Below, one piece after another: positions 22,246-61,130 of a stretch of 64,000 nt of DNA (positions within the stretch are counted from its first letter, which is position 1; the number at the start of each line of letters is the position of its first letter). The stretch spans positions 3,552,001 to 3,616,000 of the forward strand of contig CM000152.2 of assembly GCA_000004695.1 (NCBI GenBank). The letters run 5' to 3'. The notes under the pieces were generated by a model. The model did not search any database. It was not told the DNA's origin and worked only from the letters and a program-made list of their open reading frames with translations. The position numbers and the translations under genes were made by a program. This DNA is from Dictyostelium discoideum. Its lineage: Eukaryota.

Positions 22246-22318
22246 CGCCCAAAGGGGGGCTCGAACCCCCGACCACAAGGTTAAAAGCCTTGCGCTCTAC
22301 CGACTGAGCTATCTGGGC
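22246..22318 (-). tRNA. tRNA-Lys(UUU): tRNA-Lys (anticodon UUU), 73 nt
   Basis: RC is GCCCAGATAGCTCAGTCGGTAGAGCGCAAGGCTTTTAACCTTGTGGTCGGGGGTTCGAGCCCCCCTTTGGGCG. It folds as a cloverleaf: 7-bp acceptor stem with one G-U, A box TAGCTCAGTCGG, anticodon loop CTTTTAA, B box GGTTCGAGCCC. It closely resembles metazoan tRNA-Lys-TTT. Confidence 0.9.
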
Positions 22319-26409: not shown

Positions 26410-29076
26410 TTACATAACCGACGAGAGAACCAACAGCAGCAACACAACTAATTGTAATACTTGCAATTGCCCACCTGATAGTTTGGATGTTTTACCGATT
26501 GATGGTGATGGGGATGGAGATATTGATGTTTGAGTTTCTTCAATTTTAACATCATAATGAAATGGTGTAGAGCTTAATTGGAGATATAATACTCCTGATG
26601 TTTCATTAACAAATGAATTGGAATGGCATAATATAAAATCGGAACTGTTTGTAAAATCGGTTTCGTTTGAACTTAATTTTGGTGATATGCTATATTGTAA
26701 ATTACATGAAAGAGAAACATTTTCTGATGAAACTGCCAAGCTTGCATTAATAAAACCTGAAAAGCAAACACCACCAATAGTTATTGAAATACCATCTTTT
26801 TTATTTTTAATGGTTGAAATAACTGTAATCTTTGGTTCTAAATATGTTAATATTGCATTTGGTCCCAAATCATCACCGATTAATATTGAAACAAAGAGTG
26901 GACTCTCTTTACTTTCAGCTCTAACTATTAACATATTTTCATTTTGAACAATTATTGTAGTGTTTTTATTATTTGCTAATACTTTAACTTTGAATTCATC
27001 TCCATTTGACAATAAATTCTTACCAGAAACTGTGATAAAACCTCCACAAGCAATTGTTTTATTATCTTTATTTATTATACCATAAATAACAGGTGGAAAT
27101 TTTAAATTAAATAATGATTCCATATTATTTCCATTTACTGTAATATTAATTGGACCATTTTCATAGGAGTTCAATGTTTTAATAGTTAATTGATTATTTG
27201 TTAATGTTAGAATTTCTGATGAAATATCATTACCATTGAAATAAACTTTAATATATGATATTGAGTTACCGAAATTATTTCCATAAAATGTAATATTATA
27301 TTGACCTTTAGAAAATTTACGATTCTCAATATTTGGTGGAGCATATGAGTATTCATCACTAACTGTCTCTGAGTTTAATTGGAATATGAATTGTTTATTG
27401 ATACCTGTACCATATGGTGTTGAACATGTTGTTACATAGAAACTAGAATTTGAATATTGTAATGATGGTGTTGAACATTGTGTGGCTGATGAATTACCAA
27501 CTGTAATACTTGGTTGTGATGATGAACTAATTGGACAATCCATATAATATAATTCAATATTTAATGATCCATTTGAAAGATTTGGTCTATTGATTACATT
27601 TATTAATAGTGATGCTGAAATTGAAATTGTATTTGAGGTCATATTAGAACGAATGAAATTAATATTAAATGTACTACATCTTAAAAGAGGTAATTTAAAA
27701 GTTAAACTCTTTTCATCAGGCAATATTTTAAATTGGTCTATGTTTATATAACCATTAATTCCATTACTATGTAATTGAATGAACGATTCTCTATTTTTAC
27801 CAAAACGTGTACCAATTAATGTAACAATACCATTTGAATATGATCCACTTGATAAAGTTGGAGCATTATATGAAAATGATACACCATTAGGACTTGTTGA
27901 ATTACAACCACTGAAATTAACGTCAACTTTTAAATGTGTACCACCATATTCATTTGGATCTAATTTACATTCTAATTCAGTTGTAGTTGATTTAATAAGT
28001 GTACATTGTTTATTACCAATTGTAATTGATGGGATAAATGATGAATTTAAAGTTGATGATAATTTTTCACCATTAATTGTTACTATACCACCTAAATAAT
28101 TTGATACTGATGATATTGATGTTATTATTGCTGGGAAACAATGAATAAAATTCCTTTCCATTGAGACTTCATTTACCATAATATAAACAGACATTGGACC
28201 GGGATCAGGCATACTAAAGTTATTCACTTGAATTTGTGTATGATTTACTGAAATATTAAAATTGGGTTGATTAACACCATTAATAGAAACTTCAACCAAT
28301 TTTTTATCTGTAAAGAAGTTATCACCATTAATTGTTAATATGTGTTTCAATGAGTCTGAAACAGTACTTGATATTTTAGGTGATTCGTATGAAAATGGAA
28401 AACGACTACTCCAACTATCTTCATCAAATGAAAATGCAAAATTTCCAGAGCCTGGTGGAATTGTTACAGTAATATTATTACAGTCAAAAGATGGATCAGA
28501 GAAATTACCTTTAATAACAAAAGGATTATTTGTATTTTGAAGCAAATTTGGACCACCCCTTATTCTTAAATAATTGCCAGTAATTACTATATCACCTCCA
28601 GATGTTTTAGGTTTTTTATTATATTTCAAATTAGTTGGTTTTGGAAATCTATAAAATTCTGAAATACTAAATGGACACTCTTCAATTGGACTTGATACTT
28701 CTCTTACACATATCTTACTGTGAACACTACCCCATAATCTTGATAATGGCTCATCTGAATGGAATGTACAATATCTCCTATTACCATCAATAACAAGACT
28801 ACAATCAAAATAATTTGGTGCCATTTCATATCTTGGTGTTGTTTCGTTTTGATACATAATTAAACGGGTGGGATATGAACGATGACTTTGAAATACTAAT
28901 GTGAATGATTTTTCATCAAATATTGCATCTAAAAAAACAAATTAATTGAATAAACAAATTATTATAAATAAATTAAAAAAAAAAAAAAGATATTTACCAA
29001 TTGAGTATGGACGTTCCATTAAATATCCTAATTTAAATATTGAGAATAAAATCAGTAATATTATTTTCTGTTCCAT
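26410..29076 (-). CDS. Secreted IPT/TIG-repeat cell-surface protein, Tgr-like, probably GPI-anchored, about 841 aa, copy 1. Exon 1 is 29076..28998 (signal peptide), intron 28997..28929, exon 2 is 28928..26410.
   Basis: The 815-aa ORF begins without a signal peptide. Upstream, an ATG exon [26 protein letters not shown](G/D) ends at donor GTAAAT and is joined via a 69-bp intron (acceptor TTTTAG) in frame to [36 protein letters not shown]. The body contains multiple IPT/TIG-type repeats ([12 protein letters not shown]..., [55 protein letters not shown]). The C-terminus (...[30 protein letters not shown]) looks like a GPI-attachment signal. There are many N-glycosylation sequons. Confidence 0.75.
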
Positions 29077-35079: not shown

Positions 35080-37805
35080 TTACTGGTTGATGGTGAAGGA
35101 TGAGAGCACCAACAGTATCACCAACACAAACAATTGAAATACCTGCAATTGCCCACCTGATAGTTTGGATGATCTACCGTTTGATGATGGAGGAGATAAT
35201 GGTAATTGAATTTCTTCAATTTTAACATCATAATGGAATGATGTTGAGCTAAATTGGAGATATAATACTCCTGATGTTTCATTAACAAATGAATTTGAAT
35301 GGCATGACAAACAATCGGTACTATTTGTAATATCAGTTTCATTTGAACTTAGTTTTGGGTTACTATCATACAATGTCTCATTTGGTGATAAACTGCATTG
35401 CAAATTACATGAAAGAGATACATTTGTTGATGAAACTACCAAACTTGCATAAATAATACCTGATAAACTAACACCACCAACTGATATTGAAATACCATCT
35501 TTATTATTTTTAATGGTTGGAATAACTGTAATCATTGGTTTTAAATATGTTAATATTGCATTTGGTCCCAAATCTTCTCCAATATATGTTGAAACAGAGA
35601 GTTGACTCTCTTTACAATCAGCTCTAACTATTAAAATCTTTTCATTTTGAACAATTATTGTAGTGTTTTTATAATTTGCTAATACTTTAACTTTGAATTC
35701 ATCTCCATTTGACAATAAATTCTTACCAGAAACTGTGATAAAACCTCCACAAGCAATTGTTTTATTATCCTTATTAATTATACCATAAATAACAGGTGGA
35801 AATTTTAAATTAAATAATGATTCCATTTTAATTCCATCCACTGTAATATTAATTGGACCATTTTCATAGGAGTTCAATGTTTTAATAGTTAATTGATTAT
35901 TTGTTAATGTTAGAATTTCTGATGAAATATCATTACCATTGAAATAAACTTTAATATATGATATTGAGTTACCGAAATTATTTCCATAAAATGTAATATT
36001 ATATTGACCTTTAGAAAATTTACGATTCTCAATATTTGGTGGAGCATACGAATATTCATCACTAATTGTATCTGAATTTAATTGAAAAATGAATTGTTTA
36101 TTGATACCAGTGCCATATGGTGTTGAGCATGTTGTTACATAGAAACTAGAATTTGAATATTGTAATGATGGTGTTGAACATTGAGTAGATGATGATGAAT
36201 TACCAACTGTAATACTTGGTTGTGATGATGAACTAATTGGACAATCCATATAATATATTTCAATATTTAATGAACCGTTTGAAAGATTTGGTCTATTGAT
36301 TACATTTATTAATAGTGATGATGCTGAGATTGAAATTGTATTTGAGGTCATATTAGAACCAACCAATTTCACTCGAGTGAAATTAATATTAAATGTACTA
36401 CATCTTAAAAGAGGTAATTTAAATGTCAAATTCTTTTCATCAGACGATACATTTAATTGGTCAATTTTAATATTATCATTAATTCCATTACCATATAATT
36501 GAACGAATGATTCTTCATTTTTACCAAAATGTGTACCAATTAATGTAACAAAACCATTTGAATATGATCCACTTGATAACGTTGGAGTATTATATGTTAA
36601 TGTTACACTATGAGGATTTATTGAATTACAACCACCGAAATTAACGTTAACTGGTAAATTTTTACCACCATTTTGATTTGGATCTAATTTACATTTTAAT
36701 TCATTTGTATTTGATTTAATATATGTACATTGTTTATTACCAATTGTAATTGATGGAGTAAATGATGAATTTAAAGTAGAAAATAATTTGTCTCCTTGAA
36801 TTGTTACAATACCATCGGAATAATTTGATACTGATGATACTGATATAATTAATGGTGGGAAACAATGAGTATAATTCTTTTCAGCCGGGATTTCATTTAC
36901 CTTAACACTAATTGAAATTGGGCCTAGATCAGGTCTATTAACGTTATTCACTTGAATTTGTGTATGATTTACTGAAATAATAAAATTTGTTTGCTTAATA
37001 TCATCAAAATAAACCTCTACCAAGCTTTTATCTGTAAAGAAGTTATCACCATTAATTGATAATATTAGGTACCCTCCGTCAAAAAAAGTACTTGATATTT
37101 TAGGTGATTCGTATGAAAATGGAAAAAGATTATCCCCAGTTTCATCAAAGGCAAATTCAAAATATCCAGAGCCTGGTGGAACTACTACAGTAATATTATT
37201 ACAGTCAAAAGATGGATCAGAGAAATTACCTTTAACAACAAAAGATGTCATATAATCAAATGTAGTTAGAATGTGATTTGGACCACCCCTAGATCTTAAA
37301 TAATTACCAGTAATTACTATATCACCTCCAGATGTTTTTGGTTTATTACTATATTTCAAATTAGTTACAAATGGATAATCTAAAGATGAAAGATCAAATG
37401 AACACTCTTCAACTGGACTTGATACTTCTCTTGCACATACCTTACTTTCTATACTACCCCATAATCTTGAAAATGGCTCATCTGAATGGAATGAACAATG
37501 TCTCCTATTACCAATAACTAGACTACAATTAAAATAATTTGGTGCCATTTCATATCTTGGTGTTGTTTCGTTTTGATACAAAATTAAACGGGTTGGGTAT
37601 GATCGAAAACTTTCAAAAGTTATTGAAAATGATTTTTCATCAAATATTACATCTTTGAAAAATAAATTAATTGAATAAATAACATAAACAAATTATTTAT
37701 TAAAATATTATGATACTTACCTACTGACATTGGACGACCAACTGAATGTCCTGATTTAAAAATTGAGAATAAAAATAAAATCAGTAATATTATTTTCTTT
37801 TCCAT
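35080..37805 (-). CDS. Secreted IPT/TIG-repeat Tgr-like surface protein, copy 2, about 861 aa. Exon 1 is 37805..37721, intron 37720..37653, exon 2 is 37652..35080.
   Basis: Signal-peptide exon [28 protein letters not shown] is followed by donor GTAAGT and acceptor CAAAG|AT, in frame with [36 protein letters not shown] (the track ORF starts at a TTG). The C-terminal ~45% is nearly identical to copy 1. The N-terminal ~400 aa has diverged by roughly 30-40%, by eye. Confidence 0.75.
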
Positions 37806-43343: not shown

Positions 43344-44077
43344 GAATATTTTAAATATAGGCAGAGAGACATGTTAAATTAAGTTTGGAATATGCTGGGT
43401 TGGCATTGAGTTTACCAGCGGTCTTGAAAGACTTACACAGAGCATTGGAAAAATTTGATGCACTTGAGTCCAGTTTGATAGCTGAGCTAGAGTCTTTAAA
43501 AATACCAGTAAAAAATGCCAGTACCATACCAGTTTTGCATCCTCCAATTAACCATGTTAATACAAGTATTGCTACAACTGCTGCTGCCAGTATCAACAAC
43601 AACAACAACAATGATAACACCATTACCACAACCACCACCACCACTACTATCAGCAATGACAATCTTGCTTCAACTACAAATTCTTTACCAGTTAACTCTG
43701 TACCAAGAACCACTGCCACTTTATCAGATGTTAACAGCCTTATTACTGCAACTCTTGGACCCACTACTGCTCCTACTATTGGTTCTTCTGCAACCACTGG
43801 TGATACTACTGCAATTGATGGTACAAACACCAATGTCACCACTGATACTACCACCATAGAAACAACCATGAAGAAAAAAGGCAGACCACCACTTTTTAAA
43901 GAAATTCCAGAAAATTGTTATGTCTGTGGAGTAACCGAAACTCCATATTGGAGAAGAGGTACAGACGAAGGTGTAATGGTTGACCTCTGTAATGCATGTG
44001 GATTGCGTTACATGAAATTAGAAAAGAAAGAGAGACTTTTAAAACAAAAAAATAGTACCAGTAATGTTTTGAACTAA
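42965..44077 (+). CDS. GATA-type zinc-finger protein (single C-terminal GATA finger), about 313 aa. Exon 1 is 42965..43186, intron 43187..43360, exon 2 is 43361..44077.
   Basis: Exon 1 is MGKRKPIPSINIGNN...KFIYKN|GTAATT. A 174-bp intron with a ~70-nt poly(T) ends at ATATAG|GCA, in phase with AERHVKLSLEYAGLALS.... The C-terminal finger is CYVCGVTETPYWRRGTDEGVMVDLCNACGLRYMKLEKKER, preceded by the basic KKKGRPP. Confidence 0.8.
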
Positions 44078-44979: not shown

Positions 44980-45520
44980 TAATGTATATAGATAATAAAA
45001 AATATACATTCCATACACACCAAATGTGTTGTGTCGTTTCATTTTTGAAAGAAAAAAATGAAAATTCCCACTATTACCACCAAACACATTGGCATTCATT
45101 TTTTTTTTATGTCAATAAATTAAATGAATACAAAAAAAACTCACACTCACCACCACACCCACTTCTATATATCAAATTTGTATTGCATTTTTATTTTGTG
45201 TCTTTTCATAATAATAACAAAACACACCAAATGTGTTGTGTCTTTTCATTTTTTAAAACAAAAAATACTATAATTGTATTTATTCTCTAGTGTCGTTTCA
45301 TTTTTGAAAGAAAAAAAGAAAACTCTCAATATTACCCCAAACAAATTGGCATACATTTTATGTCAATAAATTATATGAATACAAATTAAAAAAACTCACA
45401 CCATCTATACATCTTATTTGTATGACATTTTTATGTTGTGTCTTTTCATTTTCCAAACAAAATTCTACAACTGATTTCATTCTCTTGTATCGTTTCATTT
45501 TTTAAAAAAAATAATACATT
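44980..45520 (-). repeat. Two units of the ~250-bp repeat family (same family as the tandem array at 60400..61130, opposite orientation)
   Basis: Repeated core acaccaaatgtgttgtgtc(g/t)tttcattttt...gaaagaaaaaaa(g)aaaa(t/c)tc(c/t)ca(c/a)tattacc...aaacacattggcat is the reverse complement of ...atgccaatttgtttggtggtaatagtgag...ctttcaaaaatgaaacgacac...aaaatgaaaagacacaacacatttggtgtg at 60420..60560. Confidence 0.7.
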
Positions 45521-45573: not shown

Positions 45574-46190
45574 GATCACGTTCATGTTTATTTTTGAGTG
45601 TTCTATTTATCTATACTAAATTCATGTTAAAAATAAATAAAATTAAATCGTTAAAAAATAAGAAAATTTGAATTTAATTATTCATTTTTTGTAATTGTTT
45701 TTTATATTATTTTTTCTTGCAAGGTGGAATTCCTTAAAATTGGTAAATTCTTAAAAAATGTCAAATGTAAGTATTAAGTATTTTTACTGTGAAAATTCCC
45801 AAAGTTTGTGGGGAAATTTTTTTTTTCCACTCTCTGTATTGTTGAGTATTTTAAAAAAAAAAAAAAAAAAAAATTAAATAAATAAAAAAAAAATAAAAAT
45901 AGATTGAGAAAGGGGTTTCTGTGCAACATTATAAAAAAAAAAAAAAATTAAATCAATTTTAAATTGAAATTTCATACAAACAAATAATATAATTGTAAAG
46001 AAAAAAATTATTTAATAACATTGATTTAATTACCGCTTCTATTAACAAAAGAAAATTATTTTTTATTTTTGTTTTAATTTATTTTTATTTTTTTTATTTT
46101 TTTTTATTTTAATTTATTTTCTAAATAGATAATATATATATTATAAAATTAAAAATTGATTTAATTTTATAAACAAAAAATTATTTGTTT

Positions 46191-46223
<33 letters not shown>

Positions 46224-46293
46224 TTTCTTTTCCCCTTTTTTATATTAACCTTTACAATAAAATTATAATTGTTTTTGAAAATTAAAATTCATT

Positions 46294-47796
46294 TTAACTT
46301 GGATTTAAAAATTCTTGATCAATTAAATTTGTCATTTGGTTGGGTTTCAAATTTAAGATATCAAAATGAATATTAACATTTAAATTTTTATCACATGGAA
46401 TGAAATTTGTTCTATCGTGAATATTTTCAAAATATGGACTTTCCAAAATTTCATTGACTGAATATCTATCTCTTGGATCCCAACATAGCATATTTTTTAA
46501 AAGGTCAATTTGAATTTGATTACAGCCTATAAATGTATTATTAAATGTTGGTTGAAAACTATTTTTTCTATTATATTCCATTAGGAAAAACAATAATTCT
46601 CCTTTTACAACATAAGCTCCTTCTGAAGCTTTTGGTGCACCTATTAATTTATAAATTGATTTCAAATGTTCTTTACCTAAAATTATTTTAAAAAAAAAAG
46701 TAAAAAGAAAATAAAAAAAATTAGAAATTTAAATAAATTAATTTATAATTTAAAATAATTAAATAAATAATAAAATAAAATACAAACTGTTGAAAGATCT
46801 AAATAATCTTTTACCTAACAATAGTTCTGCAAATAAAACACCAGCACCCCAAACATCAGTAGCTTCAGTATATAAAGAATCACCCCAAATTGTTTCAGGA
46901 GCACGATAAGAGTAAGTATTAGTAATATACTCCTTATTGAATAAAAAGGTAGGATCAGTATCTAATAGAAAGCAATTATTAAATTCTGTGAATTTAATAT
47001 TAAAATTTTCATCAACGAAAATTGAGTTTTCTGGATCTAAATCTCTATGGATAACTCCGGCAGAATGCATAAACTTTAAACCCATTAAAATTTCATAGAA
47101 CAATTGGCAAATATCATCTTGATCAAGCATGTTATTAGATATTAAATTCAATAATGAATATTGTGGTTGAATTGATTCAAAATAAAAATCTTCATCATCT
47201 TTTTGTTGAATCAATGTTGAATGTTGTTGTGGATTATCATTTGAACTTATAATTGAATTTAGAATAGATGTCAATGGAGGTTGATATGAATCTGAACATT
47301 TTCTTTTAAAAATACTTTGATAGGTTGAAATATGTTTACCACCTTGGAAAAGATTTTGAAAAATTAAATTTCTAATAATTCTATGGCCATTTAATTCATT
47401 ATCAAACATTCTTTTTGATAGTTTTTTTAAAATTACTCTTTTTTGAGTTTCAAAATTAAAAGCAATAAACATGATACCATTGGTGCCACAGTCTACAATT
47501 GTATTTGGATCAATTAGCATCTTTCTTGGAACAGAGATTGAACGACCATCGGTATAATAAGTTATTGTATCATTTTGATTGGATGGTGTTATTAATGTAG
47601 GTGGTGGTAACATTTGACCTTGGCCATTGCATTTTTTATAATTTTTACCAATATCAATAGTATCACTATTATTTTCAAAATCAAAAATATTATTGTCTGA
47701 ATTATCGTGATTTAGAATATAATAAATATCCATTTTTATTATAATTTGAAAAATATTATATTTAAAATTATTAAAAGTAATAGAATAATAATACAA
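46294..47796 (-). CDS. MAPK/CMGC-like protein kinase homologue with degenerate catalytic motifs (predicted pseudokinase), about 455 aa. Exon 1 is 47796..46815, intron 46814..46677, exon 2 is 46676..46294.
   Basis: Kinase subdomains are present: HSAGVIHRDLDPENSIFVDENFNIKFTEFN (HRDLKPEN with Lys->Asp, and DFG replaced by EFN), YRAPETIWG (APE), DVWGAGVLFAELLLG. After the donor G|GTAAAA and a 138-bp intron (acceptor TTTTAG|GT), the sequence continues in phase into KEHLKSIYKLIGAPK...LLKNMLCWDPRDRYSVNEILESPYF, a typical CMGC C-lobe. The Gly loop is replaced by CGTNGIMF, but a VAIK-like RVILKKL is retained. The true start may be the internal MDIYYILNH (47733). Confidence 0.75.
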
Positions 47797-48160
47797 ATAA
47801 TTAAATTATTAATAATAAAAAAAATATAAAAAATAAAAAATTAATTGTAATTGTTTTTATTTATTGTAGGATGTGCAATAAAAAAAAAAAAAATAAAAAA
47901 AATTAAAATTAAATTAAATTAAATTAAATTAAATTAAATTAAATTAAATTAAATTAAATAAATACAATTTAATTGTAATTAAATAATTATAAATAATATG
48001 TGAGACAGCTACAAAAAAAATTAAAAAGAAAGTGGTTAATCAACAAAGTAACCACAATCACACTCACCACCACCACTCAAAAATTACATAGCGATGTTTT
48101 TTTTTTTTTTTTTTTGGTGCATATTTTTTGAATTTTGCTTTTGGGAATGCAAATTTCAAC

Positions 48161-48211
<51 letters not shown>

Positions 48212-49559
48212 AATAGTGCGATATATTATTACTTGGTTTATTGCACTAAATTTTATTATGACAACACTATGACCACAAAAGTTTGTATAACTTAATTTTT
48301 TAATTTTCCATTGTTTTTTTTTTTTTTTTTAAAATTGATGTTTTTATCCTATCAGAGAAAAAATATTTTTTTAATATAAATTAGTATATAAAAATTGAAC
48401 ATTCAAAAATACACAATATGATAAAGAAAATAATTTATCCGTTCTTTTTTTTGAATTTTTTTTTTTTTTTTTGATCTAGATTTACAAATAAAAAATTATC
48501 ATTAAAAAACAAAATATGCCAATGTGTTTGGTGGTAATAATGAGATTTTTCTTTTTTTTTCTTTCAAAAATGAACCGACACGATAGAATGAATTCAATTT
48601 TAGTATTTTTTTCCTTCAAAATTGAAAAGACACAACACATTTGGTGTGTTTTTTATTTTTTTTATAATTTTTTTTTTTATTAAATTAAGAGAGTTGTTAA
48701 ATAATAATTATAATAATAAAAATAATTTTCAAAACAATTAAAATAAAGAATATATTACATCATCCAACAGAAAATACATTTTATACAATTTAATTTACCT
48801 TTAATATTTATTAAATTGAATTTATAAATTTTAAATAAATAAATAACTTTTATTTTTGTTAATTATTTTTTTTTTTTTTATAAAAGGTTGTTATTAAAAA
48901 ATTTTTTGTTTGGTTTTTTTTTTTTTTTTTAAATTTAAAAAAAGAATGTTAACTTATAGATCACTTTGCTAATGCCAGATAGTAATGAAATTAAACCATA
49001 GAAACTATTAAAATATTTTAGTGGTGAATTTTTTTATATTGCCTTGAATCAAGAGATTCTTGCTGCCTATGGCTGTTTGCCTATTTTTTCGTGTGCGACC
49101 ATTTGGTAAACTTGACATTTTAGGCTGCACCATGGTGATCGGCGACCACCACATACAAAGACTTAATTGAAAAAAAAAATTAAAATTTTATTTTTTAAAT
49201 TAGGCTCGTGACCAAATAAAAAACGCTTCAAACATACAACGAAATAAAATAAAATAAAATAAAATAAATAAAAAAATTATTTGTAATAATATTTTAAAAA
49301 ATAAATATTAATTTTAAAATTAATCAATTATTCTTAAACTATTATTTTATATAAATAAATCATTATTACCTTATTTAATTAAATAATATAAACAATTATT
49401 TTATTATTTTAATTTTCTATTAAATAAATTTGTTTTTTTATTTTTGTTTTATTTTTTCTTCATCTACAAGAATCATATTCTATATGTTAATGATTATTGA
49501 CTGTATTGTTGCGCATATGGTGATTTTTTTTATCTTTTTTTTTTTTTCTTTTTAAATAA

Positions 49560-56518: not shown

Positions 56519-56636
56519 ATGTTATTAGAAATTCTCAACAGTTTAGCATCATTTTTTAGTAAGATATTCTCATTATTTGAAGGTAAAAAAGATATAAGAA
56601 AATTATTGATTGGAATTTCTGAAATCATTGGTTTTA
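56519..56636 (+). pseudogene. 5' fragment (first ~30 codons) of a third ARF-like GTPase copy, truncated by a deletion that fuses it to the antisense Tgr-like pseudogene
   Basis: atgttattagaaattctcaacagtttagcatcattttttagtaagatattctcattatttgaaggtaaaaaagatataagaaaattattgattgga matches the first ~96 nt of the ARF-like genes ([32 protein letters not shown]). From ~56604 the sequence bears no relation to ARF, and by 56650 it is the reverse complement of the Tgr-like C-terminal region. Confidence 0.7.
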
Positions 56637-58760
56637 TACGTCAATGTTGTACTTGGTCCCTGGACGAACTCCTGTAGTATTTTTATTATTTGATTTTACA
56701 TTAACTTTGAATTCTTTGTCACTTGTCAATAAATTCTTACCAGAAACTGTGATATGACCTCCACAAGTAAGTGTTTTATTATCTTTATTTGTTATATGAT
56801 AAATGACAGGAGGTAATGTTAAATAAAAGAATGAATCCATATAATTACCATCTACAGTAATATTAATTGGGCCATTTTTATATGAATCCAATATTTTAAT
56901 AGTTAATTGATGATCTTTTAATTCTAGAATTTCTGATGAAATATCACTACCATTTAAATAAACTTTAATTAATGATGTTGAATTACCAAAATTATTACCA
57001 TGTAATTCAATATTAGTTCCATCATCTGAAATTGTACGATTCTCAACTTCAGGTGGTGCATATGAGAATTGATCACTGACTGTCTCTGAGTTTAATTTGA
57101 ATATAAATTGTTTATTAATACCAGTGCCATATGGTGTTGGACATGTTGTTTTATAGTAACTAGAATTTGATGATGGTATTGAACATAGTGAGGCTGATGA
57201 TGAATCACCAACAGTAATACTTGGTGCTGGTGAACTAATTGTACAATCCATATAAAATATTTCAATATTTAATATTCCATTTGATACTGTTGGTCTATTG
57301 GTTACATTTACTGATAATGATGCAGAAATTGAAAGTGTGTTTGCGGTAATATTAGAACGAGTGAAATTACTATTAAATGATCTACATCTTAAATGAGGTA
57401 ATTCAAATGTTAAACTCTTTTCATCAGATGATACATTAAATTTGCTAATGTTTGTATTATTAATTCCATCACCTATAATTGAATGGATGATTCGTTATTT
57501 GTACCAAGATTTGTACCAATTAATGTAACGATACCATTTGAATATGACCCACTTGATAATGTTGGAATATTATATGTAAATAATACACCATTAGGACTTG
57601 TTGAATCACAACCACCGAAATTAACTTTAACCGGTAAGTTTTTACCACCCAGTTCATTTTTTTCTTATTTACATTCCAATTCAGTTGGTGTTGATATAAT
57701 AAATGTACATTGTTTATCACCAATTATAATTGATGGTGTCAAAGATGAATTTAAAGTCGAAGATAGTTTTTCACCTTTAATTGTTACAATACCATCTAAA
57801 CGATTTGATAATGATGATATTGATGTTATAATTGCTGGGAAACAATGATTATAATTCTTTTCAATTGAGACACCATTTACGGTAATACTAACAGACATTG
57901 GGCCAGGCGCAACTCTATTAATGTTACTCACTTGAATTTGTGTATGATTTACTGAAATAATAAAATTTAGTTGAGTAATACCATCAAAATAAACCGTAAC
58001 CAACTTTTTATTTGTAAAGAAGTTATCACCATTAATTGTTATTATTTGTTTCAATGAGTCAAAAACGGTACTTGATATTTTAGGTGATACGTATGAAAAT
58101 GGTACTTTAAATACACCAGTTTCATCATAGTACAACCTAAAAGTTCCAGATCCTGGTGGAAATATTACAGTAATATTATTTAGAGTAGATCCATCAGAGA
58201 AATTACCTTTAACAACCAAAGGTTTAGAAGTATCAATGGAATTTAGAAGGAAATTAGGACCACCAAATAATCTTAAATATGAGCCAGTAATGACCCTATC
58301 TTCACCAGATGTTTTGGTTTTTTACTATATTTCAAATTGGATGCTTTTGGATAATATATTAAAGGCGAAACATCAAATGTACAATCCTCAACAGTATTTG
58401 ATATATCTCTAGCACATATCTTACTGTCTATACTACCCCATAATCTTGAGAATGGTTCATCTTAATGGAATAAACAATGCTCTCTCCATCAACTAGGGTA
58501 CAATTGAAATAATTTGGTGCCATTTCAGTTCTGGGTTCTTTTTCGTTTTTATACAAAATTAAACGGGTAGAATATGGGAGATTACTATTAAAAATAAATG
58601 TAAATGATTTATCATCATATATTACATCTAATAAAAAAAATTAATTACATAAACAAATTATTATAAATAATTAAAAATTTAATGATAATACCTATTGGTG
58701 ATGGACGATACATTGAATATCCTGATTTAAAGAACAAAAATAAAATCAGTAATATTATTT
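56634..58760 (-). pseudogene. Third Tgr-like IPT/TIG gene copy, degenerate: several frameshifts/stops and the C-terminal ~200 codons deleted
   Basis: A signal exon ([26 protein letters not shown], ~58755..58680), a 68-bp intron, then a body homologous to copies 1 and 2. The body is broken into ORF pieces 57665..58219 and 56634..57251, with stops or frameshifts near 58330, 58470, 57640 and 57480. It ends ...[24 protein letters not shown], where copies 1 and 2 continue for ~200 more aa. Confidence 0.7.
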
Positions 58761-60110: not shown

Positions 60111-60399
60111 TGGTAATAAATGGTTAAATAAATAATAAAAAAAAAAAAAAAAATATAATCCAGGTTTAATTAATTTTAAAACAAATTATTTATTCCATCC
60201 ATTTTTTTTATTATTTTATTAGTATAGATAAATAGAACACTCAAAAAATTAACAAAATGATATAAAAAATAAAAAGAAATGAAGGTGACCACTTTATTTT
60301 TAAATTTTTAAATTTTTTTTTTATTTTTTTTTTTTTATATATATTTAATTATATTTCTATAAATATATATATGAAAAATATAAATAAAATGATTTTATT

Positions 60400-61130
60400 T
60401 ATTTATTGAAGTATAAAAAAATATATGAGAATGTGTTTGGTGGTAATAGTGAGGGTTTTCTTTTTTTTTCTTTCAAAAATAAAACGACACTAGAGAATGA
60501 ATACAATTTTAGTATTTTTTGTTTTAAAAAATGAAAAGACACAGCACATTTGGTGTGTATTGGGTGTGTGTTTTTGTTATTGTTATGAAAAGACAAACAT
60601 AAAAATGCCATACAAATTTGTTTTTAGAAGTGGGTGTGGTGGTAAGTGGGTTTTTTATATGTATTTATATTCATATAATTTATTGATTATAAAAAAAATA
60701 TTCCAATGTGTTTAGTGGTAATAGTGGGAGTTTTCTTTTTTTTCTTTCAAAAATGAAACGACACAAGAGAGTGGGTTTAGTTGTGCAATTTTGTTTAAAA
60801 AATGAAAAGACAAAAAATAAAAATTACATACAAATTAGATGTATAGAAGTGGGTGTGGCGGTAAGTGTGAGTTTTTTATTTGTATTTATAATTTATTGAT
60901 ATAAAAAAAATATATGATTATTTGTTTGGTGGTAATAGTGAGGATTTTCTTTTTTTTTGTTACAAAAATGAAACGACACTAGAGAATGAATACAATTTTA
61001 GTATTTATTATTTTAAAAAATGAAAAGACACAACACATTTAGTGTTTGTGGAATGTGGGTTTTTTTATTATCTGTATTTTTTTTCTTTCAAAAAAGAAAC
61101 GACACTACACATTTGTTGTATGTATTTTAT
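60400..61130 (+). repeat. Tandem array of about three units of a ~250-bp repeat (satellite-like)
   Basis: Three successive units each contain ...gtgtttggtggtaatagtgag(g/a)(g/t)ttttc(t)nctttcaaaaatgaaacgacac(t/a)agagaatgaatacaattttagtattt...aaaaaatgaaaagacacaacacatttggtgtg...ggtgtgg(t/c)ggtaagtg.... Partial dispersed copies lie at 44980..45520(-), 48500..48660, 51290..51340 and 53080..53260. Confidence 0.7.

Follow-up and report, generated by a model that had tools for sequence, protein, structure and literature searches.

The window analysed here, a 64-kb stretch of strongly AT-rich DNA (21% G+C), carried on its minus strand, at 46294-47733, a gene with a 442-aa product identical to DDB_G0280643 of Dictyostelium discoideum AX4 (UniProt Q54V35). 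From this protein identity, the window is D. discoideum AX4 genomic sequence, and DDB_G0280643 is almost certainly a real, intact and annotated gene. The gene was comprised of two exons and a single 111-nt intron (Table 1), the sole GT..AG excision that gave the 442-aa protein. The intact two-exon reading frame of the original prediction was recovered in the spliced model, which equalled the DDB_G0280643 protein. The limits first given for it (46294-47796) were the bounds of two bacterial-code open reading frames; the true ATG lay at 47733. A splice donor at 46815/46814, giving a 433-aa protein, was rejected because the database protein and the orthologues show GKRLFRSFNS to be coding, and the correct donor lay 27 nt beyond it.

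DDB_G0280643 belongs to a family of three lineages, namely: D1a (DDB_G0280643), D1b (DDB_G0280557) and D1c (DDB_G0280855). Five of five orthologues of DDB_G0280643, and hence six D1a genes, had a single intron at the equivalent point. The D1c genes contained one intron apiece, by residue count at a point equivalent to that of D1a, which fits a duplication at the DNA level. D1c was the tandem neighbour of D1a in D. firmibasis, D. citrinum, D. dimigraforme and D. cf. discoideum FIZ. When all family members were searched against the 64-kb window (tblastn), no second family copy was found, the tandem D1c paralogue of the other species included. DDB_G0280643 was located within a cluster of tgr genes (IPT/TIG allorecognition-type).

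Table 1. Features of DDB_G0280643 in the window (residue numbers in parentheses).
Feature	Window positions	Strand	Basis or remark
Exon 1	46788..47733	-	Codons 1-315 + 1 nt; ATG at 47733; spliced translation identical
Single intron	46677..46787	-	111 nt; GTTTGT...TTTTAG; 9% G+C class
Exon 2	46294..46676	-	Codons 316-442 and stop
N-terminal extension motif MLPPPTLITPSNQNDTITYYTDGRSISVPRKM (41-72)	47518..47613	-	Kept in all three paralogue lineages
Gly-rich loop DCGTNG (81-86)	47476..47493	-	First Gly to Asp81; G83 and G86 kept; alignment
VILK (100-103)	47425..47436	-	beta3 Lys K103 kept; VAIK Ala to Ile
alphaC RIIRN (118-122), for RxLRE	47368..47382	-	Salt-bridge Glu to Asn122
beta4-beta5 insertion (148-178), predicted disordered	47200..47292	-	pLDDT <50; not in MAPKs
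Catalytic loop HRDLDPEN (229-236)	47026..47049	-	HRD Asp231 kept; Lys to Asp233
EFN (250-252) at DFG position	46978..46986	-	HMMER and MAFFT alignments
KEY (267-269) at MAPK TEY site	46927..46935	-	Thr lost; Tyr269 kept
APE (278-280)	46894..46902	-	MAFFT alignment
DVWGAG (293-298), alphaF DxWxxG	46840..46857	-	MAFFT alignment
alphaG helix and MAPK insert (316-370), replacement hot spot	46513..46676	-	55-codon scan
LLKNMLCWDPRDR (374-386), alphaH-alphaI	46465..46503	-	CWDPxxR kept; MAFFT alignment
C-terminal MAPK L16-like extension (399-442)	46297..46428	-	Aligns to MPK6 extension up to residue 430

The protein matched the Pfam Pkinase domain (PF00069) over residues 83-389, covering both lobes, with E=6e-32 and 111.5 bits (cut-off 31.7). 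In a sequence search of the PDB, the nearest solved relatives were Arabidopsis MPK6 and MPK4 and ERK2 (1e-31 to 1e-27). The AlphaFold2 model had a mean pLDDT of 79, with low confidence just at residues 1-43 and 148-178. The best 50 Foldseek matches in the PDB were all MAPKs, Mps1, ERK2, p38, MPK6 and MPK4 among them, at target-normalised TM-scores of 0.75-0.89 over about 390 columns; full-length MAPK matches scored 0.83-0.89. These fold and sequence relatives agreed with the MAPK-like assignment originally proposed. From the length of the Foldseek alignment, DDB_G0280643 has the MAPK insert and a C-terminal L16-like extension, the latter with helices at 416-423 and 427-439 in the model. Mean identity among orthologues in the beta4-beta5 insertion was 48%.

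Within this fold, the sites by which MAPKs dock their partners and are activated read otherwise. In a MAFFT alignment with five MAPKs, DDB_G0280643 had no acidic CD site and D-motif groove of the MAPK type. Where ERK2 has the Asp residues of its CD site, AX4 had HDRTN and the orthologues HLNT, HQKT or HKPI. The docking-groove positions, aligned to ERK2 His123 and Tyr126, were D/G/N/T and Q/K/R/I in the family. In place of the MAPK TxY, the activation loop contained KEY in AX4 and K/N-E/D-Y family-wide; the Tyr (Tyr269) was invariant in the family and in MAPKs, and the TEY Thr was replaced by Lys or Asn within the family.

Motif positions were set by HMMER alignment to MPK6 and MAFFT alignment with five MAPKs, which agreed throughout. 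The APE, DxWxxG and C-lobe CWDPxxR motifs and the VAIK-like Lys were all present, as had been claimed, and both alignments supported the Lys to Asp change in HRDLDPEN and EFN at the DFG position. No canonical DFG occurred elsewhere, the pattern D[FLYW]G being absent from the whole protein. K103 was invariant across a 61-sequence alignment. The Gly-rich loop had been described as altered, which held for the first Gly (now Asp) but not for G83 and G86. Three changes had been overlooked: alphaC Glu to Asn122, TEY to KEY, and an insertion after the catalytic loop. The alphaC position was Asn in every family member and Glu in every aligned MAPK. The insertion, one residue long, was found in the D1a proteins and makes the assignment of Asn236 as the N171 equivalent uncertain. 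Altogether, N122 stood in the place of the alphaC Glu, D233 in that of the catalytic-loop Lys and E250 in that of the DFG Asp of catalytically competent MAPKs.

Family members were sought among 5.8 billion proteins, with the protein and then with a family profile, and among 1.84 billion cluster representatives by exhaustive HMMER search. Both protein searches found the family in the D. discoideum species complex only: AX4, other D. discoideum strains, D. cf. discoideum, D. dimigraforme, D. firmibasis and D. citrinum. No member from D. purpureum or other dictyostelids was among the search matches, the presence of their proteomes in the databases being assumed. Against the family profile, scores were 766, 597 and 562 bits for the three lineages, followed by multi-domain proteins, with ordinary MAPKs at about 190 bits. 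The family was monophyletic in a neighbour-joining (NJ) tree (100% bootstrap).

Lys to Asp233 and alphaC Glu to Asn122 were present in 16 of 16 family proteins, which represent all three lineages and as many as six genomes, and the beta3 Lys was likewise retained across the 16. Asp was found at the catalytic-loop Lys position in none of 259 loops from 254 non-family MAPK-like proteins, 247 of which loops contained Lys. Other catalytic positions varied by lineage. The DFG-Asp position was E, Q or D in D1a, E in D1b and D in D1c. The N171-equivalent was N, E, D, S or T in D1a, A, S or T in D1b and T in D1c, and the HRD Asp was D in D1a and D1b and S in D1c. Among the D1a orthologues, five of six had E or Q at the DFG-Asp position (Glu also in other D. 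discoideum-lineage genomes) and D. firmibasis had Asp. The D. firmibasis orthologue contained the beta3 Lys, the HRD Asp and the Asp of its DF pair; it had no alphaC Glu, no Lys in the catalytic loop and no DFG Gly. Recurrence of the substitutions in orthologues, on which the original prediction had staked its reading, was thus found for Lys to Asp and alphaC Glu to Asn in all 16 proteins, with variation at the Mg-ligand positions.

The N-terminal extension linked the family to one MAPK. An HMM of its 31-residue motif, built from ten family members, had ErkA as its lone match (E=0.0016) among about 258 MAPK-like proteins, with the next at E=1.4. In BLASTP comparisons DDB_G0280643 scored 114 bits (31% identity) against the first 399 residues of ErkA and 88 bits (25% identity) against full-length ErkB; all ErkA comparisons cover residues 1-399 and exclude its C-terminus. 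The ErkA alignment started upstream of the kinase core, within the extension, pairing MLPPPTLITPSNQNDTITYYTDGRSISVPRK of DDB_G0280643 with MPPPPTSDTSNFNDNISYFVYGSQFTVPRR of ErkA. In the NJ tree the family sat on a long branch nested in no MAPK subfamily, and because the long branch prevents placement inside the MAPKs this tree could not be used for the question of an ErkA origin. The extension match and the higher score against ErkA than against ErkB suggest that ErkA, an ERK-type MAPK, is the probable source from which CMGC/Dicty1 was derived by duplication.

The original prediction had implied novelty, which did not hold: the gene, its family and its motif changes were tabulated in 2006 (Goldberg et al., 2006; PMC1420674). 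In Table S2 of that work the identical sequence, DDB0229841, is one of three members of CMGC/Dicty1 and is listed as VILK / HRDLDPEN / EFN, rated “aq” (active, qualified), with the remark “lacks E91, E instead of D220.” The D220 remark looks like a slip, since Asp293 (DVWGAG) is intact and the Glu lies at the D184 (DFG) position in our MAFFT alignment. The other members, both rated “i” (inactive), are DDB0229296 (VIVK / HRDIDPSA / EFY) and DDB0229333 (LIIK / HRSLDPKT / DFS). According to its main text, Dictyostelium has only two MAPKs, Erk1 and Erk2; CMGC/Dicty1 was not tied to ErkA or to MAPKs, and orthologues were unavailable in 2006 (PMC1420674). In UniProt, DDB_G0280643 is named a “probable” Ser/Thr kinase, and among the three only DDB_G0280855 is “probable inactive.” A full-text literature search found no other papers naming DDB_G0280643, DDB0229841 or Q54V35; the sole literature match of the family was DDB_G0280557, as a low-count row in an RNA-seq table. 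A search on MAPK-like or CMGC pseudokinases found nothing specific. Added here are the invariance and drift of residues among orthologues, the ErkA link, selection estimates, a replacement hot spot and an apparently broken copy in D. cf. discoideum FIY.

Pairwise dN/dS was estimated by maximum likelihood (ML) and by NG86, which overestimates dN/dS in an AT-rich genome. For D1a the values were 0.09-0.40 (ML) and 0.23-0.68 (NG86), and for D1c 0.02-0.05 (ML) and 0.05-0.17 (NG86). In Fisher tests of pN<pS in D1a, the p value was 0.046 in the closest pair and fell as low as 7e-19 in distant ones. An unbiased scan of 55-codon segments placed residues 312-366 at the top in three of three close pairs (permutation p<0.0005, 0.048 and 0.033). 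For residues 316-370, dN/dS in the three close pairs was 1.7, 0.5 and 1.1 by ML and 1.8-3.3 by NG86. These values fit neutrality or weak positive selection on the alphaG/MAPK-insert segment.

At the sequence level a pseudokinase is defined as being without at least one of the beta3 Lys, the HRD Asp and the DFG Asp (PMC4718504). DDB_G0280643 falls within this definition through the absence of the DFG Asp (E250), and its D. firmibasis orthologue passes the same three-residue kinase test. The original reading as a probable pseudokinase was supported by the fixed Lys to Asp and Glu to Asn changes and the drifting Mg-ligand positions across the 16 proteins. With a probability of about 0.6, we read DDB_G0280643 as a pseudo-MAPK derived from ErkA, without canonical phosphotransfer and with whatever function it may have exerted through protein binding. 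Judged from its residues, the protein very likely has no canonical kinase activity. The combination of a fixed charge reversal with Mg-ligand positions that drift between close species favours a dead active site. Loss of phosphotransfer is further suggested by the established functions of four residues, namely alphaC Glu, catalytic-loop Lys, Mg-binding Asn and Mg-binding Asp (PMC4718504), and by titin kinase, in which DFG to EFG contributes to inactivity and whose motifs abolish catalysis when moved into twitchin kinase (PMC4042850). D1c, without an HRD Asp yet with a dN/dS of 0.02-0.05, provides a non-catalytic family member clearly under selection.

Under the mechanism we propose, DDB_G0280643 is one of three paralogues of CMGC/Dicty1, a MAPK-derived family recovered from the D. 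discoideum species complex only, and its protein has kept the MAPK fold, C-lobe architecture, beta3 Lys, HRD Asp and activation-loop Tyr. Residues for positioning the ATP phosphates and Mg2+ have been lost through alphaC Glu to Asn, catalytic-loop Lys to Asp, DFG Asp to Glu, DFG Gly to Asn and the first Gly-loop Gly to Asp. Function, if any, would be exerted through the binding of other proteins. That it serves MAPK-type signalling as a putative adaptor or decoy is tentative, with the balance somewhat against it, and the scaffold or allosteric-regulator role first suggested is likewise putative. A simple D-motif decoy is unlikely, as the family has not conserved the canonical docking residues of MAPKs. 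The alphaG/MAPK-insert face is a partner-binding surface in MAPKs. As the variable, fastest-changing face of DDB_G0280643, it is a better candidate interface than the D-motif docking site, and a partner docked there may be changing fast too. A more specific scenario is speculative and most improbable: DDB_G0280643 would be no static scaffold but a rapidly evolving protein of this lineage, with its alphaG/MAPK insert under diversifying selection, that modulates ErkA signalling or acts as a decoy in it and has a part in social or self-recognition signalling.

Three other explanations of these residues bear on this reading. The chance that sequencing error or a wrong gene model lies behind them is practically negligible. 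An alternative splice donor did give a wrong 433-aa model, but the final model equals the protein held by RefSeq and UniProt. At least five species or strains, with genomes assembled independently, share the substitutions, and this orthologue comparison refuted the sequencing-error reading. It is also improbable that DDB_G0280643 is an atypical active kinase, in which Glu250 serves for the DFG Asp or Asp233 binds metal in a rearranged site; in one variant the invariant Asp233 may rebuild a non-canonical metal site and give a new active-site geometry. The beta3 Lys, the HRD His, Arg and Asp, the DFG Phe, two of three Gly-loop glycines and APE are all kept, the strict invariance of Asp233 suggests a specific role, Asp to Glu is conservative, and the D. 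firmibasis orthologue has its Lys, HRD Asp and DF-Asp. Both the 2006 rating (PMC1420674) and the UniProt name imply activity, and WNK, Haspin and CASK are precedents for function despite non-canonical sites (PMC4718504). Against this, five catalytic or structural positions changed together, and a single orthologue group has E, Q or D in place of the DFG Asp and N, E, D, S or T at the N171 position. D1c is without the catalytic Asp, yet is the most conserved member. In the established mechanism the catalytic-loop Lys contacts the gamma-phosphate, and an acidic side chain in its place would be expected to repel ATP; the EFG signature in twitchin kinase abolishes catalysis (PMC4042850).

More weight, though still an unlikely alternative, goes to DDB_G0280643 being a dispensable duplicate under relaxed constraint and drifting to a pseudogene, with no maintained regulator. 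It was the fastest-evolving of the three paralogues. The AX4 and FIW proteins were 82% identical in D1a, against 96% in D1b and 99% in D1c, and D1a dN was 3-9 times that of D1c at similar dS in the same species pairs. In the closest pair D1a dN/dS reached 0.40 (ML) or 0.67 (NG86), and for exon 2 alone, two of the three close pairs had a value near 1. The FIR protein model of the orthologue is short by 29 N-terminal residues. A syntenic copy in D. cf. discoideum FIY, 89% identical in DNA to AX4 in exon 1, with flanks collinear with window 45978-48394 and annotated as fragments, had at least three frame changes, an in-frame stop and QRD for HRD. The frame changes could be homopolymer errors of a long-read assembly; the stop, unlike these, is a substitution. 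On the other side, the D1a reading frame, start, stop and intron were intact across six genomes at dS up to about 1.5-2.5, the exon 1 kinase core had dN/dS of 0.2-0.45 (p down to 1e-15), and 79 alignment columns were invariant in all three paralogues. The earlier view that the gene is maintained and not decaying therefore stood in part: dN/dS below 1 and the intact frame and intron spoke for it, and the rate of D1a, exon 2 near 1 and the apparently broken FIY copy spoke against it. Selection on DDB_G0280643 likely continues in AX4, where it is constrained loosely, and the gene may be dispensable in some lineages.

Returning to the reading as an ErkA-derived pseudo-MAPK, the “probable Ser/Thr kinase” and “active, qualified” labels of DDB_G0280643 are probably too generous. 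MAPK-derived pseudokinases are, to our knowledge, uncommon. A family of three pseudo-MAPK genes from one true MAPK could be a simple system in which to study the modulation of a MAPK pathway by dead kinases. DDB_G0280855, which evolves slowly, is the better experimental entry point, DDB_G0280643 being the least constrained of the three, and the practical value of the finding for DDB_G0280643 itself is modest.

Overall, the known systems closest to DDB_G0280643 were the ERK-type MAPKs (ErkA, ERK2, MPK6/MPK4 and Mps1), which were its best full-length sequence and structure matches, the MAPK insert and L16-like extension included. They also share with it the activation-loop Tyr, the YRAPE Arg and an alphaC Arg pair, and among the MAPK-like proteins searched ErkA alone shares its N-terminal extension. 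Compared with them, DDB_G0280643 is without the TxY Thr, the alphaC Glu, the catalytic-loop Lys and DFG, has a 31-residue insertion, predicted disordered, between beta4 and beta5, and is 25-31% identical. The vertebrate titin kinase, reported to be an inactive scaffold (PMC4042850), is similar in having Glu for the DFG Asp and a bulkier residue for the VAIK Ala. Titin kinase differs in being an unrelated member of the CAMK group that keeps the DFG Gly and has Arg, not Asp, at the catalytic-loop position. Within CMGC/Dicty1, of which DDB_G0280643 is the first-listed member (Goldberg et al., 2006), DDB_G0280855 has the same Lys to Asp and Glu to Asn changes and the same N-extension motif; it differs in HRS for HRD, DFS for DFG, the absence of a long N-terminal tail and its slower evolution.

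Pfam (E=9e-24 to 2e-7) recovered TgrO1-type Ig and IPT/TIG domains in three Tgr-like genes of the window; the pseudo-MAPK gene (DDB_G0280643) therefore lies within a tgr-family cluster. The syntenic copy of this gene in D. cf. discoideum strain FIY was likewise adjoined by a Tgr-like gene.

In D. firmibasis and D. citrinum, a homologue of the GATA-finger ORF in the window was the conserved upstream neighbor of the pseudo-MAPK gene. Compared with these two species, the AX4 pseudo-MAPK gene was flipped relative to the adjoining GATA-finger gene. An inverted pair of a dispersed repeat (113 nt, 85% complementary) was found on either side of the AX4 gene, and this flanking repeat may have mediated the inversion. 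The intergenic region upstream of the gene contained ~12 units of a (TTAAA)n-type microsatellite, along with a ~60-nt poly(A) run.

In four other genomes (D. firmibasis, D. citrinum, D. dimigraforme, and D. cf. discoideum FIZ), the D1c paralogue (392-395 aa) was in tandem with the pseudo-MAPK orthologue, ~1.2 kb downstream of it, and was itself followed by a convergent TIG/ComC_SSD gene. This arrangement was found neither in the AX4 window nor in strain FIW.

Judged from its sequence, the FIY copy looks like a pseudogene: its reading frame switched in the order +1/+2/+1/+2/+1, an in-frame stop was present (NEIL*SPYF), and HRD was replaced by QRD. The annotation represented the copy as fragments, 181 and 176 aa in length.

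Positions of features in the window and at loci of the other genomes
Feature	Location	Positions	Strand	Detail
tRNA-Lys(UUU) gene	window	22246-22318	-	
Tgr-like gene	window	26410-28857	-	
Tgr-like gene	window	35080-37581	-	
Tgr-like gene	window	56634-57885	-	
ORF with GATA zinc finger	window	43385-44077	+	E=2.8e-10
Dispersed repeat, inverted pair	window	45210-45322 and 48549-48661		
Dispersed repeat, also	window	45042-45116 / 48495-48569		
Dispersed repeat, additional copies	window	near 60390-61080		
Microsatellite and poly(A) run	window	47890-47960 and 48150-48210		
D1c paralogue, downstream of orthologue	L001	10507-11788		
D1c paralogue, downstream of orthologue	L003	8741-10003		
D1c paralogue, downstream of orthologue	L004	8621-9891		
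D1c paralogue, downstream of orthologue	L005	8715-9977		
Syntenic pseudo-MAPK copy	L006	3418-4836		FIY, GCA_054859205.1

Another MAPK-like protein, P0127 (742 aa), contained two MAPK-like domains in tandem, with HRCIRP as the catalytic loops; the DFG motif was replaced by CDFK/CDFR. This protein may represent an unrelated pseudo-MAPK from another organism.

In the published kinome, the row for the pseudo-MAPK (DDB0229841; PMC1420674, Table S2) carries the note 'E instead of D220'. The D220 equivalent is present in this protein as Asp293 in DVWGAG, and the published note seems to have named D220 by mistake for D184.
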